Of a DNA stretch of 64,000 nucleotides, positions 22,387 to 36,284 are shown in pieces. The DNA lies in sequence record PQ356295.1. One strand, given 5' to 3'. Under the pieces are notes generated by a model. That model was not told the DNA's origin. It did no database searches and worked only from the letters and a program-made list of their open reading frames with translations. This DNA is from Escherichia phage KKE7M. How positions within the stretch are numbered: the first letter of the stretch is position 1; every line of letters starts with the position of its first letter. The translations under genes and the position numbers were made by a program.

Positions 22387-22747
22387 ATCAGACTCCTTTA
22401 TAAATTTACGTTTCATGCTACACATCATACAGCGTCTTTTCATCTATTACAAGAACAGCAACCTAGAAACATCATTAATAGAGGAATTAGTATAGGATTT
22501 CCCTATCAATTATTCTATATATACCTAATATTTTTAACACACCCCTTTGTACATAATATAGACAAATAAATATCTATGCCACAAAAATTTTCCGGTATAC
22601 CCGATTTATTTCGACACACCCCCTTTTCATAAGCGTAAAGCCAATAATATCAATAACTTGCCGCAAAATACTGCTCGCTTGCGAGAGGTGCTTAACGCGA
22701 TTTTTAGCGCCCCCGATTTCTGCCGACCGTCCCCCTCAAATATCAAT

Positions 22748-22776
22748 GAGAATTATTATCATTTGCATTATCATTC
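22748..22776. promoter_or_regulatory. Fur-box-like AT-rich palindrome
   Basis: GAGAATTATTATCATTTGCATTATCATTC resembles GATAATGATAATCATTATC. Confidence 0.3.
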
Positions 22777-22942
22777 AATGACTTATAAGACTTTTGATTA
22801 TTTTCTGAGCAAGAAAGGCACTACTCACAACAAAACAGATAAATTATAAGTAAATCAATGACTTGGCAAGTCTAAACATCTATATACACCTTGCCAAATG
22901 AAATGATCCTGCGTGAAATAGTGCTACCCGTGGAAGATAGCT

Positions 22943-22963
22943 GATAATGATTATCATTTGCAT
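22943..22963. promoter_or_regulatory. Fur-box-like AT-rich palindrome
   Basis: GATAATGATTATCATTTGCAT. Confidence 0.3.
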
Positions 22964-23272
22964 ATTTTCTATACTATAAAACTACCTAAAAATCAAGATA
23001 ATTCTGATTTATTGCGCTTTTAAGAGAATAGGCTCAACAAATAGGCTATAACTATGCTCAACAAATGATAGGTTATATGGGGCAATAGTATGAAAAACCA
23101 TCTATTCAGATATAAATAATTTTGCGCAATAATGGTGATATTTTTCTTGACAAGAAAGATTTCTTTGTGTTCACATAGCGTCCCCTGGAAGGTGGCGCAT
23201 TATGATCATCAATGTCATTGTTCACGATGTTTATTATTGAATAGCTTATTATATGTAGCTTATATTATAGCC

Positions 23273-23456
23273 AATGTTCCAAACATTAGCTAATAATAAC
23301 GCACCGCAACAATGTAAGGGATACAATATACCATGTATATTGTTGCGCTTGCAATTGTTGCAAGCTACATAAGCACAAATAATAACTATCGGTGATGGTT
23401 ATTATGTGGGGTGTGTAGTTGCGTTATTATTAGCCGCCTATGTGTCCGGCATAGGC
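23273..23456. other. nested inverted-repeat (multi-hairpin) structure in gene-free region
   Basis: 15-bp perfect inverted repeat GCTAATAATAACGCA / TGCGTTATTATTAGC encloses three internal hairpins; a fourth GCCTATG / CATAGGC hairpin follows. Confidence 0.5.
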
Positions 23457-23499
23457 TGCTAATGATACGCTTGCTAATTATATTTCTTGTTATAATTAT

Positions 23500-23826
23500 T
23501 GTATGAAATGATTACGGTATGAAATGATTATTTAGGTAATAGATAGTAAGGTAAAGATTAGATCATAAATAGATAGGATATTAATTATTTAGTAATGTTA
23601 CTAACAATTTAATAGTTACTTTGTGCAACAATTCGATAGATTATAGTTATAGTTTTAAAGGTTAGATAGATTATATTTAGCTTGGTAATGATTTATATTA
23701 GTTATTGTTGTTTAATATAAGGTTATCAATGAGATAGTAACAGTAAGTTATAAATAAAGGTGAAATAATTAGCTTTAATTTAGTTAGATAACTTATTATT
23801 TTATAGGTTAGATGGTCATAAGTTAA
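23500..23826. repeat. AT-rich iteron-like short repeats
   Basis: Dense reiteration of TAGATAG / GGTTAGAT / GATTATA words in about 330 bp without ORFs. Confidence 0.35.
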
Positions 23827-23899
23827 GAATGATTATCATTATTGCATTATGCAGTTTATTGCATAAATAATCAGCTATAAATGAGAATGATTATTATTT
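23827..23899. promoter_or_regulatory. pair of Fur-box-like palindromes
   Basis: GAATGATTATCATTATTGCATTATGC and GAGAATGATTATTATTT. Confidence 0.3.
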
Positions 23900-24104
23900 A
23901 AGAGGAAAGACAAGAAAAAGGCTGTTTTTGCCAGATAGTTACATGGAGAAATTAAAAATAAGCGGTCTAAAACACGTTGTAAGCGCCTTATGATCTTCAT
24001 GGTATGGTTGTTCATCTGCTCCTTGATTAGCTCGATACCGCGATCTATTCACTTTTTTCGGTGAACGTTTTTGATAGGTAAAAGCTATCATCTTTATTTA
24101 GGTA

Positions 24105-24130
24105 AAAAGAAAGGGCGCTTTGTGCGCCCT
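24105..24130 (-). terminator. rho-independent terminator (minus strand)
   Basis: GGGCGC-ACAAA-GCGCCC hairpin followed by TTTCTTTTT on minus strand after gene stop. Confidence 0.6.
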
Positions 24131-24145
24131 GGTGTGAAATGTTAT

Positions 24146-24529
24146 TTACTGATAAGCTGGATCGTTTGTTATATCAATCCAATGAGCTAAATTAATTTTA
24201 TTTTTTGCTTTCATTTTCTCGATCAAACGTTCGGCTAATGTCTCGGAACGAATATAAACATGCTCGCTAAAATCTTGCCCCGTTTCCTCGTCGATCATCT
24301 CGCGATATTCAATTTTCCCGATAAACGCATGATTCAGCGCATAAGTTTTACCCGTGTACCAGTTGTGCAAATGAATCTCACATTTATAATCATCGCTATA
24401 ACCTTCGGTTGTTCTAACTTCAACCAGATCGCCTTTAAACACTGATAAGCACCACATAGGATCACGATCTACAGCGCCGTTAAAGTCTTTACCGTTTACA
24501 GTAGCCGCCAGGTTGATGATATTGCTCAT
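24146..24529 (-). CDS. hypothetical protein (about 127 aa)
   Basis: Start trimmed to ATG with CGAGGAAT RBS downstream of a sigma70-like promoter. Confidence 0.6.
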   Translation of the reverse strand: MSNIINLAATVNGKDFNGAVDRDPMWCLSVFKGDLVEVRTTEGYSDDYKCEIHLHNWYTGKTYALNHAFIGKIEYREMIDEETGQDFSEHVYIRSETLAERLIEKMKAKNKINLAHWIDITNDPAYQ

Positions 24530-24575
24530 GGTGATTCCTCGTTTACCGTTTAAAATGATTTGCCCTACGTGATAA

Positions 24576-24604
24576 ATAATAATGTAAGCGCGATCCGGTG
24601 TCAA
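24576..24604 (-). promoter_or_regulatory. sigma70-like promoter (TTGACA-17-TATTAT), minus strand
   Basis: Consensus -35 and good -10 about 45 nt upstream of start codon. Confidence 0.5.
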
Positions 24605-24616
24605 TAAGAAAGTTAA

Positions 24617-24853
24617 TTATTTTGCATAATCAATAACAGCGCAGATTTTATCATTTACATCTTGTAAATCAAAAGCATAGGCGATCTTACCTTGCAATTT
24701 CCCACGGGTGAAACAGATACGATAAACGCCGTTTTTACTATCCTCTTCTGATTTTAGTATTTTTGCAACCGTTGCAATTAACAGATCATCAGAGTAAGCG
24801 ATAAAGCCACCACGTAAAATAGGTGATTTTTTGAGGATCATGACTTCTTTCAT
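24617..24853 (-). CDS. hypothetical protein (78 aa)
   Basis: AGGAAAAAG RBS upstream. Confidence 0.55.
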   Translation of the reverse strand: MKEVMILKKSPILRGGFIAYSDDLLIATVAKILKSEEDSKNGVYRICFTRGKLQGKIAYAFDLQDVNDKICAVIDYAK

Positions 24854-24901
24854 TTTCTTTTTCCTGTTTTCGTTTTGGGTATGTTCTACCCTCTAAAAAC
24901 A

Positions 24902-24930
24902 ATATTAAACTGCTATGATTTATCGGTCAA
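24902..24930 (-). promoter_or_regulatory. sigma70-like promoter (TTGACC-17-TAATAT), minus strand
   Basis: -35/-10 pair about 50 nt upstream of 24853 start. Confidence 0.45.
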
Positions 24931-25275
24931 TAGATGAGATTGTAAAGATTTGATAGTTTATTCCTTTGATGTTTTGTTGTTTGATAGTTATTAGCTATCA
25001 ATATATAGCGGGATCTTCCGGTGATTATCTTCCCCTGTCCCCAGGTGCCGCCCGTTCCATAATAATAATCAAAAGCAGGGTAAAAGGCAAGATAAAAAGC
25101 AAATTATTTCCTATGTGCTTTAAACGCTCTAAACAGCTTTATAACAGCTTTTTCATCCTGGTAAGGGGATTAATCATCCCTACCTTGTTTAAGCGGTTAC
25201 AGTCGGTTTTAGATGGTTTTACGCCACCTTTACGCCTATTCTTTACGTGTTGTTTCCATCGTGAAAAAAGAATAC

Positions 25276-25308
25276 AAAAAAGGGCGCTTAGTGCGCCCCT
25301 TTCTTTTA
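25276..25308. terminator. bidirectional rho-independent terminator
   Basis: GGGCGC-TTAGT-GCGCCC hairpin flanked by A-run and T-run. Confidence 0.6.
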
Positions 25309-25315
25309 CCGTGTA

Positions 25316-25705
25316 TTAATATTCGTTATAATACATCGCTAATTTTTCATCAAAAGCCGATTGACGATCAGCATACTCCCAAAACATTTCCTGATCCTGT
25401 TGGTCATCTTCATCCATCATGTTAAACTGTGCTACTTCCTGGTAAGTGATCGCCATATTATAACGATAGGTGATCTCTTCTGCGATGTTTTCCGGTAAAG
25501 ATGATTCTACACTGTCTAACAGCATATTTAACATCATTTCAGCCGCTTTTTCATCATTATCAAAGCAGTAAGCAGACCATGCCGCATGATGCTTATTCTT
25601 CATCTTTGCAATCAAGCCATTGACTAAAAAAGGCGCTACGTTGTTAACGATACCCTGTAAAGATTGGAATTTTTCAACGTTAGAAACAGAAACCAGGTTG
25701 CGCAT
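25316..25705 (-). CDS. hypothetical protein (about 129 aa)
   Basis: Start trimmed to ATG downstream of promoter-hairpin cassette; AAAAAGG RBS. Confidence 0.6.
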   Translation of the reverse strand: MRNLVSVSNVEKFQSLQGIVNNVAPFLVNGLIAKMKNKHHAAWSAYCFDNDEKAAEMMLNMLLDSVESSLPENIAEEITYRYNMAITYQEVAQFNMMDEDDQQDQEMFWEYADRQSAFDEKLAMYYNEY

Positions 25706-34918: not shown

Positions 34919-34921
34919 TCT

Positions 34922-34950
34922 TGACAAGCCCAGGGATCGGGCTTATACTG
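34922..34950 (+). promoter_or_regulatory. sigma70-like promoter (TTGACA-17-TATACT) driving GC-rich non-coding transcript
   Basis: Consensus -35/-10 with no credible ORF downstream for more than 700 nt. Confidence 0.45.
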
Positions 34951-35180
34951 TTTTACATACAGAAGAGGAAGCGCCACCCCCACGGCGTAAAGGCGGGGCT
35001 AACATACCAGGGGGGCACTGGTTGGAAGGTTGATCGCCGGTAGCTCGTCTAAAATAAATTTGTAAAGAAATGTAAAGATAAAAATAATCGCTTGCTTTTG
35101 TTGTTGGTTATGCTATTCTTATTGTATGGCGAGGGGACACGGGAGCGCGAGACAAACACCACCCCTGCGCGTTATTCTCT

Positions 35181-35292
35181 AAATGAGAAAAATTCTCATT
35201 TGCTAACGATTCTCATTCTCTTACTGAGAATGATTATCACTTACATAATTAAATGATAATGATTCTCATTTACAAATGAGAATGATTATCAT
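35181..35292. promoter_or_regulatory. cluster of Fur-box-like palindromes
   Basis: AAATGAGAAAAATTCTCATTT, GAGAATGATTATCAC and AAATGATAATGATTCTCATTTACAAATGAGAATGATTATCAT. Confidence 0.35.
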
Positions 35293-35313
35293 ACGCACAC
35301 CTATAAAAACACG

Positions 35314-35520
35314 AAATTGAACTTTTCATTTTTGATTTTTCTACGGAAAAAGGCAAAAAAACTTTAAATAAACTGGGGAATTTTTAAAAAATTGAAGTTT
35401 TCATTTTCAAAATCTGGATAGAAATACATACAAAAACTTTAAATAATTTTGACCAAACTTGAACTTTTCATTTTCTAAATTTGTACCCAAAAATCTGTAA
35501 AAACTTTAAATAATTTTGTA
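35314..35520. repeat. three tandem direct repeats of about 67 bp
   Basis: Units start at about 35314, 35387 and 35455; each is AAAtTGAAcTTTTCATTTT ... AAAAACTTTAAATAA. Confidence 0.6.
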
Positions 35521-35732
35521 CTTTTTATAAAAATGATTTTACTGTTCTGTTATAAGTAGTAGTTAAGAGATAGTATGTCTTTTAAAGATCAGATACCATA
35601 GTCCAACAAACAAATTAAATACTTTATTAACAGGGTATAGAATACTACTTACTCTGGATATATTATTCAGAGGGTGAATTTCCGTACATGAAACCCACAC
35701 CCCTTTTTATAAAAATAAAAATTTTCAAAATA

Positions 35733-36284
35733 TCAGGAAATATCAGATTGTGCTTTTAGATAAACAGCAAGGTCTGTATGCCATTTTCCTAAAAGATTTT
35801 GTCCTTTCCAACAATCCTTATTTTCCACGTCACGATCCCACATCCCCATTTTGATACCATAAATAGAATCATAAGGGCTTGCCTCTACGAACTCCTTATC
35901 TGCGTAAGCGATAAGTTTATTTTTGAGATCTTCATTTTGTGTGTATTTAAGATACAAACCACGCTTGACAATCTTCTCCCGTAAAGAAGCCCAAGTATCT
36001 TCATCGTAATCTTTAACTAATCTACCTAGTCGCTTATAATATGCCTGTTCTTTTTCTCCTGTATATCTTAGATCTCCGGTTAAAATAGAAGATGCAATGT
36101 TGTAATCATAAAACAAACATGCTTTTCTCCACATCATATATTGTTCCACACAAGTAAATTCAACAGAACTTGTAATAGAATTATTATACTTGGGTGCTAA
36201 AGGTTCAATAAAAGATGATAGATACCAGTTGCTAAATTCATCTTTTGCTGAAAAGAAGAACACATACTTATCAGTAATCCGCAT
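35733..36284 (-). CDS. NADAR (YbiA-like, DUF1768) domain protein
   Basis: FFF...FSNWY.S.F ... EQYMMWRKA.LFYD pattern of the NADAR family; AAGGAG RBS. Confidence 0.7.
   Translation of the reverse strand: MRITDKYVFFFSAKDEFSNWYLSSFIEPLAPKYNNSITSSVEFTCVEQYMMWRKACLFYDYNIASSILTGDLRYTGEKEQAYYKRLGRLVKDYDEDTWASLREKIVKRGLYLKYTQNEDLKNKLIAYADKEFVEASPYDSIYGIKMGMWDRDVENKDCWKGQNLLGKWHTDLAVYLKAQSDIS

Follow-up and report, generated by a model that had tools for sequence, protein, structure and literature searches.

In the 64,000-nucleotide stretch of Escherichia phage KKE7M analyzed here at its full length (record PQ356295.1; hereafter, the window), the intergenic gap at 24855-25315 carries a conserved motif of about 55 bases, which, as judged by comparison across phages and metagenomes, is a widespread, previously undescribed, promoter-proximal non-coding element of large lytic phages. 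Rather than decayed DNA, the gap is an intergenic control region made up of several elements, within an early-gene array on the minus strand. Followed along that strand, it consists of a terminator, a spacer, a promoter, the motif, a dyad together with a site resembling that of integration host factor (IHF), and the promoter and ribosome site of a 78-aa gene (Table 1). With a probability of roughly 55%, we interpret the motif as an early non-coding RNA or leader module within this control region. The original prediction for this DNA had named the gap a candidate non-coding RNA locus; the substance of that proposal stood, but its place and reason did not, as the signal is the block 25061..25000 on the minus strand and not the terminator.

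The 1.5 kb around the gap shares 98% identity with Escherichia phage JohannJBalmer (Bas62) and 95-97% with other genomes of Justusliebigvirus, a genus of the Stephanstirmvirinae (the phi92/phAPEC8 group). All local genes lie on the minus strand, each with a promoter of the TTGACA-16/17-TATTAT type, and several are then followed by hairpin terminators. Neighboring genes of the array overlap or are separated by 12-88 bp, compared with 461 bp between the 78-aa gene (24617..24853, minus strand) and the gene at 25316..25705/25741 (minus strand), for which the start of the 25316..25705 form is backed by a PHROG match. The claim that the gap is free of genes was borne out. Its open reading frames (ORFs) comprise a plus-strand 117-aa ORF with a TTG start (24966..25319), a 70-aa ORF on the plus strand and a 25-aa ORF on the minus strand, none of them credible. 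The 117-aa ORF matched no PHROG family, and of five close relatives four (L001, L002, L004 and L019) have between one and three stop codons within it, L004 and L019 a frameshift as well; two pieces of it are called as genes in the JohannJBalmer annotation and by no other annotators. The comparison with relatives did not support the alternative suggestion of a deleted-gene remnant or frameshifted pseudogene: an intact gene at this position was found in none of the 155 phage records matching the gap, whose annotations show either nothing there or plus-strand ORFs that sister genomes carry in broken form.

On the minus strand, the motif reads ..UAUGGAACGGGC GGCACCUG GGGA CAGGGG AAGAUAAUCACC GGAAGAUCCCGCUAU.., and its core at 25049..25018 (GGCACCUGGGGACAGGGGAAGAUAAUCACCGG) combines a CCUG-GGGA-CAGG hairpin with a purine/A-rich tail. 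Searches with degenerate patterns, BLAST, and a covariance model (R1) yielded the family consensus (AU)GGCACCUG-N3-4-CRGGGGGAGACAAWCAC, or in short form GGCACCUG-loop-CAGGGG-RAGAYAAWCAC, with 19 invariant columns over 23 non-identical sequences. By BLAST, the gap is conserved in layers: Justusliebigvirus keeps all of it, Phapecoctavirus 24926-25091 alone (~87%), and Vequintavirinae no more than 25018-25075 (~84%); the motif is the sole part conserved beyond the genus. Copies also occur in Vequintavirus, Certrevirus (CR3, POP15), Klebsiella phage FKP3 and Barbavirus (a Rheinheimera phage), and a partial, truncated one in Pakpunavirus (JG004/PAK_P4), so that the hosts include Escherichia, Klebsiella, Cronobacter, Pectobacterium, Rheinheimera, and Pseudomonas. 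Among uncultivated sequences, the motif was present in 5 IMG/VR contigs, 16 metagenome contigs and one contig of a metagenome-assembled genome, the G+C content of the hits being 0.44-0.67. A loose pattern run against 185,579 bacterial and archaeal genomes gave 121 matches, near chance expectation, of which only two were genuine. Both lie in L095 (CAZFPB010000002.1, 232001-240000), part of a 330-kb contig binned as Pseudobdellovibrionaceae that may be a prophage, a huge phage or a mis-binned contig. The remaining matches were mostly chance or coding, including a conserved Pseudomonas gene, and were discarded. The motif thus appears essentially phage-specific. The window itself contains one strong copy, in the gap, and one degenerate copy at 35122-35180. 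No known RNA family of Rfam 15 matched, either at the gathering threshold across the window or at E <= 1 across seven loci with canonical copies; at E <= 10, the interval 24700-25450 gave only weak matches on the terminator and AT-rich DNA (23 bits at best, the threshold being 50). ARAGORN found no tRNA or tmRNA in the window, a homology search of E. coli returned no match to the motif, and our literature search found no publication describing the element.

Sequence constraint and promoter linkage set the motif apart from its surroundings. Among six close relatives, 1 of 59 columns is variable in the motif, 2 of 37 in the promoter region (25059-25095), 0 of 29 in the terminator, 9 of 74 in the region of the dyad and IHF-like site, and 16 of 180 in the spacer (0.089 per column), the last being about half the rate at third codon positions of the flanking gene (22 changes at ~130 positions, ~0.17), where 22 of the 25 changes in 390 columns fall at codon position 3. 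In 31 of 32 extracts, at a score cut-off of >= 7/12, the motif is preceded by a promoter-like -35/-10 pair that faces the same way and whose -10 box ends 12-23 nt before GGCA; 26 extracts score at least 9. In KKE7M, the motif lies 12 nt past the -10 box of the promoter at 25090..25062, and the predicted start of transcription, ~25055, is 5-7 nt upstream of GGCA.

A micro-protein gene was considered as a source of such constraint, as the motif starts with ATG in many lineages and could encode a peptide of 17-28 aa (M-A-P-D/E-A-G-G-D-K-H-x-x-C-x-x-F..). The frame is open in POP15, FKP3, L023/L025, L029, L032, and both L095 copies, with variation at codon-3 positions (GAT/GAG/GAA, GCA/GCG, AAA/AAT) and recurrent Cys and Phe, and it is annotated as a gene in FKP3, Barba, and RudolfGeigy. 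However, the ATG is absent from the KKE7M window and from all Vequintavirus and Stephanstirmvirinae copies (phAPEC8, Murica, rV5, A73), and indels shift the frame in L022, Barba (a 4-nt loop, found in L022, Barba, and all coliphages) and CR3 (an extra G), yet leave the downstream GGAGACAAACA unchanged. The stop positions range from 17 to >50 codons, no Shine-Dalgarno sequence is present, the predicted transcription start lies only ~5-15 nt before the ATG, and the would-be third codon positions are mostly invariant. Because the nucleotides stay the same across frame-shifting indels and the start codon is absent from the coliphages, the motif is evidently constrained at the level of nucleotides, not amino acids, and we regard a coding function as extremely improbable.

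The motif probably functions as RNA, for which the structural evidence, drawn from alignments and fold predictions, is modest. Its helix (CACCUG/CAGGGG) forms a 4-6 bp hairpin, with the loop GGGA in KKE7M, and the substitutions within it are wobble-compatible on the motif strand only: C-G has become U-G two to three times, and U-A and U-G occur 12-13 times each. Compensatory changes were seen in Barba, where A-U replaces C-G, and in a degenerate copy, where G-C does so, and the degenerate copies in L025 and L032 have the internal A.G mismatch repaired or a pair flipped. In the R1-fitted alignment, 99.3% of the cells are paired and two pairs show two-sided change, compared with 0.1 in shuffles (2 of 500 shuffles reach 2). 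L095 carries the motif three times, twice in full and once degenerate, in stand-alone units that lie antisense to arrays of small genes and converge with the neighboring genes. These units run from promoter to motif and hairpin and then to GUGCCAU, which is complementary to the 5' AUGGCAC, and distal segments complementary to the 5' end and the G-run accompany both full copies. The whole-unit stretch folds with a z of -2.2, the stretch of the other copy, promoter included, with a z of -3.5, and rV5 has an 8-bp closing helix (z -4.3). A closing helix at a fixed position was rejected, as its register varies and no single alignment is possible. The motif is not simply an mRNA leader, because no same-strand gene follows it in Barba, JG004, L095, and the second KKE7M copy. 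Moreover, the PAK_P4 record annotates a non-coding RNA, based on RNA-seq, together with a promoter in the homologous intergenic region; our literature search found no transcriptome of Stephanstirmvirinae or Vequintavirinae.

Several observations weigh against an RNA or leader module. With RNAalifold on a MAFFT alignment, four pairs were obtained with no two-sided and 13 one-sided wobble-compatible changes, and the compensatory cases stem from the model-fitted alignment. The strict conservation of primary sequence with little covariation would fit a protein-binding site in DNA equally well. The closing helix differs in register between lineages and is weak in that of KKE7M; a test of cognate against non-cognate duplexes gave p ~0.02 overall, with heterogeneity between lineages, and ranked KKE7M 17th of 20. 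The KKE7M motif and its 208-nt leader fold like shuffled sequence (z 0.13 and -0.47, respectively), and this copy has diverged, with three changes in the tail and loss of the downstream UGCC block. The motif promoter and start site are consensus predictions. Searches of E. coli and the window revealed no partner or target; within the window, the tail matched nothing beyond the motif's own antisense strand. In some variants only, GGGGAGACAAACA resembles GGGGAGCAAACA of 16S rRNA (helix 24) and AUCACC the 16S 3' end, a likeness that we set aside. Lastly, the motif copy at the gap is not essential, because a natural variant lacks it: OZ035773.1 (L035, 'Justusliebigvirus VEcB') has lost 24443-25117, a deletion of 675 bp with ~10 bp of junction overlap, so that the gp30.8-like gene loses its N-terminus and the 78-aa gene, the dyad, and the motif are missing; the second locus is retained. 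This copy is therefore under purifying selection in nature yet dispensable.

Under the RNA or leader interpretation, host RNA polymerase would start near 25055 early in infection, making the motif the extreme 5' end of the transcript. This end would fold through CACCUG and CAGGGG around the loop GGGA and leave the near-invariant tail RAGAYAAWCAC exposed, while a C-rich segment a few bases downstream could pair back. The module would then act as RNA, either as a stand-alone small RNA, as in L095, or as a 5' leader, as in KKE7M, where the transcript would run on through the dyad, the IHF-like site, and the AT-rich stretch into the next promoter and genes, and a highly conserved partner would recognize the invariant tail. 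As to what such an RNA might do, we can only tentatively suggest an origin-type or activating transcript that acts on adjacent DNA, or, with similar caution, a trans-acting regulatory or decoy RNA; modification of the transcribing polymerase in cis, leading to put-like read-through, seems less likely than either. It is conceivable, though doubtful, that the motif represents an undescribed and widespread class of phage RNA in which an early host-type promoter is coupled to an invariant tail engaging a universally conserved host machine. Such an RNA might act on its own RNA polymerase, allowing read-through of early-array terminators or long antisense transcripts where genes converge, or its target might be the replication apparatus, where it would serve as a primer or form an R-loop; either version would explain why ~30 nt are fixed across diverse hosts.

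The DNA beyond the motif raises the possibility of a replication-origin-type region. Here, the G-rich transcript (CAGGGG.. / CGGGGGGAGAC) would form an R-loop or primer, or open adjacent AT-rich DNA bearing repeated sites for an initiator and IHF, on the model of T4 ori(uvsY)/ori(34), ColE1 RNA II, and mitochondrial CSB II. Lineage-specific repeat arrays do lie 50-300 nt past the motif in independent lineages: AAATGTGGC/GCCACAT in L025 (>8 copies), AAAATGTGGT in L022 (>6 copies), GTGATGACATCA / GATGAAATCA in L018, CGGTCATGG / CTCGGACATGG in L032, CTGTCCAGTTCCTAAAAAT in JG004 (~4), and AATTTACAT in Barba. The second locus of the window has five boxes of the TGAGAAT-N-ATTATCA type and three ~62-bp tandem repeats, and such Fur-box-like boxes follow the motif in Certrevirus too. 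The KKE7M gap offers a dyad accompanied by further half-sites, a match to the IHF consensus, and a G+C content of 27% at 24900-24999, several motif copies lead into no gene, and the presence of at least two copies per genome together with tolerance of a deletion resembles the multiple origins of T4. Set against this, neither motif copy in L095 is followed by repeats, and the one 7-bp dyad with two half-sites in the KKE7M gap does not amount to classic 17-22-bp iterons, and TTGATAG is not enriched. Reading the sequence, we saw no DnaA box, and no initiator gene was identified among the neighbors, which are gp30.8-like, NADAR-type, or without assigned function. The GC skew turns with gene orientation at ~10 kb and 40 kb, not at 25 kb; the authors of the rV5 genome likewise searched for an origin by skew and saw only orientation-linked changes (PMC3606486). 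Origins also usually co-evolve with their initiators, but the motif is invariant across very different phages. We therefore rate an origin-type region as unlikely. More broadly, the repeat and dyad contexts suggest either a transcript acting on or with adjacent DNA, as at an origin, or repeats that serve as independent operators.

A purely DNA-level element, for which we see even less probability, would make the RNA irrelevant: the invariant 30 bp would be a duplex binding or pause site, such as an operator or roadblock at +5 to +40 or a sigma-dependent pause. Conservation of primary sequence with almost no covariation, the fixed position relative to the -10 box, the neighboring dyads, which indicate DNA-binding proteins acting in the region, and a -10-like hexamer (GATAAT) on the non-template strand of the KKE7M tail all fit this idea. 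Nevertheless, the motif block is asymmetric and lacks dyad symmetry, the hairpin substitutions pair only on the sense strand, with compensatory or mismatch-repairing changes in three copies (Barba, L025b, and L032b), and in L095 the complementary distal segments travel with both copies. Furthermore, we identified no DNA-binding protein that is conserved across such phages and hosts and holds 30 bp invariant. Nor does the gap look like the neutral leftover of a decayed, lost cassette with no function beyond terminator and promoter, a reading we consider very improbable. The spacer is lineage-specific, varies at 0.089 per column and does not keep its hairpin, cassettes are gained and lost at the locus, and the 675-bp deletion is viable; however, neutrality cannot explain a motif with one variable column in 59 that is kept from one phage subfamily to another and in metagenomes, no intact gene was seen at this position in any relative, and even the spacer varies about half as much as third codon positions. 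An early RNA or leader module within a composite control region remains our preferred interpretation.

Table 1. Features of the gap and related loci. Coordinates refer to the window except where a relative's locus is named.
Feature	Coordinates	Strand	Basis and details
Intrinsic terminator of gene 25316..25705	25276..25304	-	Pattern scan; stem AGAAAGGGGCGC / GCGCCCTTTTTT, loop ACTAA, then T-run
Lineage-specific spacer, 185 nt	25091..25275	-	BLAST and alignment of relatives
Sigma-70-type promoter, TTGCCT-17-TATTAT	25090..25062	-	Consensus scan, 9/12 matches
Conserved non-coding motif, ~55 bases	25061..25000	-	Covariance model R1, 70.2 bits, E 2e-17
Dyad, TTGATAG-N7-CTATCAA	24981..25001		Inverted-repeat search
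IHF-like site, TATCAAATCTTTA	24943..24955	-	Match to consensus WATCAANNNNTTR only
Putative early promoter of 78-aa gene, TTGACC-17-TAATAT	24930..24902	-	Scan
5' untranslated region of 78-aa gene	24901..24854	-	Hairpin GGGTA-GAACA-TACCC; ribosome site AGGA, 24865..24862
Second, degenerate motif copy	35122..35180	+	R1, 19.5 bits, E ~0.005-0.015
Fused terminator-promoters	L005 1340-1375; L006 1255-1285; L007 1345-1375; L010 680-715; L011 905-940		Relatives

The original prediction had placed a strong bidirectional terminator at the end of the gap. The terminator is real, but it opens rather than closes the gap, because the genes run on the minus strand. Its hairpin (GGGCGC-TTAGT-GCGCCC, 25282-25298) was called on both strands by a pattern scan that returned 8 terminator-like sites in 4.5 kb where 3.1 were expected. 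On the minus strand (25304..25276), it has 12 pairs (6 G-C) and a 5-nt loop, followed by TTTTTTG, with a fold energy of -18.8 kcal/mol, and it lies 12 nt 3' of the stop codon of the gene at 25316; it thus has the G+C-rich stem, the loop of 3-8 nt, the U-tract directly 3', and the position just past a stop codon that define intrinsic terminators. On the plus strand, six pairs precede CTTTCTTTT, an interrupted U-tract, and serve no gene, so that "bidirectional" holds structurally for both strands, but no credible plus-strand gene runs into the hairpin. A twin terminator 1.15 kb away (24130..24112) has the same GGGCGC/GCGCCC stem and the loop ACAAA instead of ACTAA; the terminator sequence is apparently reused within the array.

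The spacer contains short repeats (AACAGCTTT twice and TTTACGCC twice) and no conserved ORF or hairpin; a hairpin at 25165-25181 is not kept in L009, as read from its sequence. Positions 238-461 of the gap, used as a BLAST query, are covered by Justusliebigvirus records only, and DNA likeness outside this genus is confined to ~46 nt in common with Klebsiella phage FKP3 and an inverted 23 nt in common with Certrevirus intergenic DNA. An ancient, fully decayed gene may lie within 25091-25275. In Phapecoctavirus and Vequintavirus (phAPEC8, Murica, rV5, A73), the terminator directly adjoins the motif, with no spacer between them. There and in Certrevirus, terminator and promoter are fused, the -35 box (TTGACT/TTGCAA) lying in the loop and the -10 box (TATTCT/TATACT) just past the T-tract; in the KKE7M window, TATTCT is still present past the terminator and the -35 box is gone.

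The promoter scan relies on consensus matches and gave 26 promoter-like sites in a 4.5-kb region, with 17.6 expected; both gap promoters have sigma-70 hexamers at a -35/-10 spacing within 16-18 bp. A sigma-54 promoter (TGGCAC..TGCA) was rejected on reading the sequence, as the GG-GC spacing is 8 nt, not 10, and KKE7M has CGGCAC. The left end of the gap (24855-24925, 70 bp) is not orphan DNA, since it consists of the promoter, 5' untranslated region, and ribosome site of the 78-aa cassette, with AGGA 8 nt before the ATG at 24853. This cassette is exchangeable: BME3 lacks 24607-24925, Paula has a different gene there, and ESCO8 has an extra gene. The junctions fall on -35 boxes at ~24604(-24606) and 24926-24930, and BME3, Paula, and many other records lose homology exactly at 24926. 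Exchange at early-promoter -35 boxes suggests promoter-mediated recombination as a shuffling mechanism. Two nearby genes look accessory, in keeping with a variable early region, namely those at 24146-24532 (minus strand; T4 gp30.8 family, Pfam PF06019, E 4e-29) and 35733-36284 (minus strand; NADAR domain, PF08719, E 2.5e-36).

The dyad has conserved arms around a 7-nt spacer that is free to vary, and two more CTATCAA half-sites follow. Because changes in the arms are uncompensated across the phAPEC8, A73, L014, and BME3 alignments, the dyad is more likely to be a protein site than an RNA stem. Fur, DnaA, and FNR were considered as its ligands and rejected for unfit spacing or sequence. The interval 24900-24999 has the lowest G+C content in the neighborhood. 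IHF recognizes the consensus WATCAANNNNTTR, and the IHF-like site, positioned at about -45 to -65 of the next promoter, is kept as ..CTATCAAATCTTTACAAT.. in Phapecoctavirus.

The second motif copy reads ..GCGAGACAAACACC.., is closed by GCGAGGGG/CCCUGCGC, and stands behind a TATTCT -10 box. It belongs to an 800-bp ORF-poor region (34919-35732), flanked on one side by a small island of plus-strand genes and on the other by converging minus-strand genes. This region looks like an origin or regulatory hub: it contains five Fur-box-like palindromes of the TGAGAAT-N-ATTATCA type (35184-35291) and three ~62-bp tandem repeats at 35309-35520 (TTGAACTTTTCATTTT..AAAAACTTTAAATAA), and one relative's record annotates a 'repeat_region' within it. 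At 34921-35078 on the plus strand, a strong promoter (TTGACA-17-TATACT) leads into a G+C-rich segment of ~125 nt that is ~82-86% kept in Klebsiella, Pectobacterium, Enterobacter, and Raoultella phages, far beyond its flanks. This segment, possibly a further non-coding element, had no Rfam match, and its fold was not more stable than that of shuffled sequence (z 0.36). Directly past the twin terminator at 24130..24112 lies a 1.7-kb ORF-free AT-rich region (22444-24110) with the repeats TAGATAG, GGTATGAAATGATTA (twice), and GCTCAACAAAT (twice) and four Fur-box-like sites. Boxes of the form TGAKAAT-N-ATTMTCA resemble the 7-1-7 form of the Fur box and occur 13 times at <=2 mismatches, with 2.45 expected and 0 of 100 shuffles reaching 13; the sites (22747, 22942, 23824, 23882, and 35184-35291) cluster in the two large non-coding regions, not in the gap, and could be host Fur sites or sites of a phage regulator. 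Extrapolated from match coordinates, many GenBank records of relatives start or end at ~22.4-23.1 kb of the window, inside 22444-24110. We rejected a link between motif and genome terminus, as the record starts 1-3 kb from the motif in relatives fall in this adjoining ORF-free region; in PaP1, whose genome ends are reported to have been determined experimentally (PMC3652863), the motif lies 12.6 kb from the record end, which also weighs against such a link. The region 22444-24110 may correspond to the 'non-coding' box of the rV5 genome map (PMC3606486).

Among known systems, the putL and putR RNAs of HK022 resemble the motif in position, being a phage-encoded non-coding part of the nascent 5' transcript that host RNA polymerase makes just past an early promoter, with terminators downstream. 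These cis-acting processive antiterminator RNAs are ~70 nt long, form two stem-loops, and are known only from HK022-like temperate phages. The positional prerequisites for a similar role are present in KKE7M, with the motif promoter-proximal and a terminator downstream at 24130..24112; however, the motif consists of one short hairpin and an invariant tail, resides in large virulent myoviruses, and no put model matched in the Rfam scans of the window and canonical loci. Likeness to the transcript-primed origins extends to a promoter transcript entering an unwindable or repeat region, a G-run (CRGGGGGAGAC), and several copies per genome of which one may be lost, whereas the missing skew signal, the absence of repeats in L095, and the invariant sequence flanking the G-run on both sides are differences. 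RNA decoys such as RNA anti-CRISPR solitary repeats and the pseudo-ToxI of Pectobacterium phage phiTE combine a small hairpin with a single-stranded handle and come from accessory early regions, and phiTE belongs to a genus that carries the motif. In contrast to them, the motif is single-copy rather than tandem, and its sequence is the same across very different hosts, which would be unexpected for a host-specific decoy; to our knowledge, neither the E. coli type I-E and I-F repeats nor ToxI resemble it, no systematic comparison with CRISPR repeats having been made. As a short intergenic non-coding element, the motif is also similar to the orphan small RNAs of virulent phages, such as the T4 band C/D RNAs and PAK_P3 sRNA1/sRNA2 and PAK_P4 as16, the PAK transcripts being intergenic non-coding transcripts of large lytic phages (PMC4933390, PMC5563952). 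PAK_P4 as16 arises in the intergenic region homologous to the Pakpunavirus motif copy, and its annotated start is ~20 nt past the partial core; sRNA1 and sRNA2 were rejected as homologues, their sequences lacking the motif. Unlike these late, genus-specific RNAs, the motif follows promoters of early type and is found in several subfamilies.

Large virulent myoviruses of the rV5, phi92, and PAK_P1 types are common in phage therapy collections, and their early regions are almost entirely unannotated; annotators currently either leave the motif unmarked or place spurious ORFs on it. When a non-coding block remains near-invariant while all the genes around it are swapped or diverge beyond recognition, this points strongly to a core mechanism, and the ~55-nt element, with its predicted promoter, natural variants, and one natural deletion, provides an experimental handle. 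Should the motif be a DNA site, it would mark a conserved control point; should it function as RNA, the very few non-coding RNAs known from strictly lytic phages would gain a new family.

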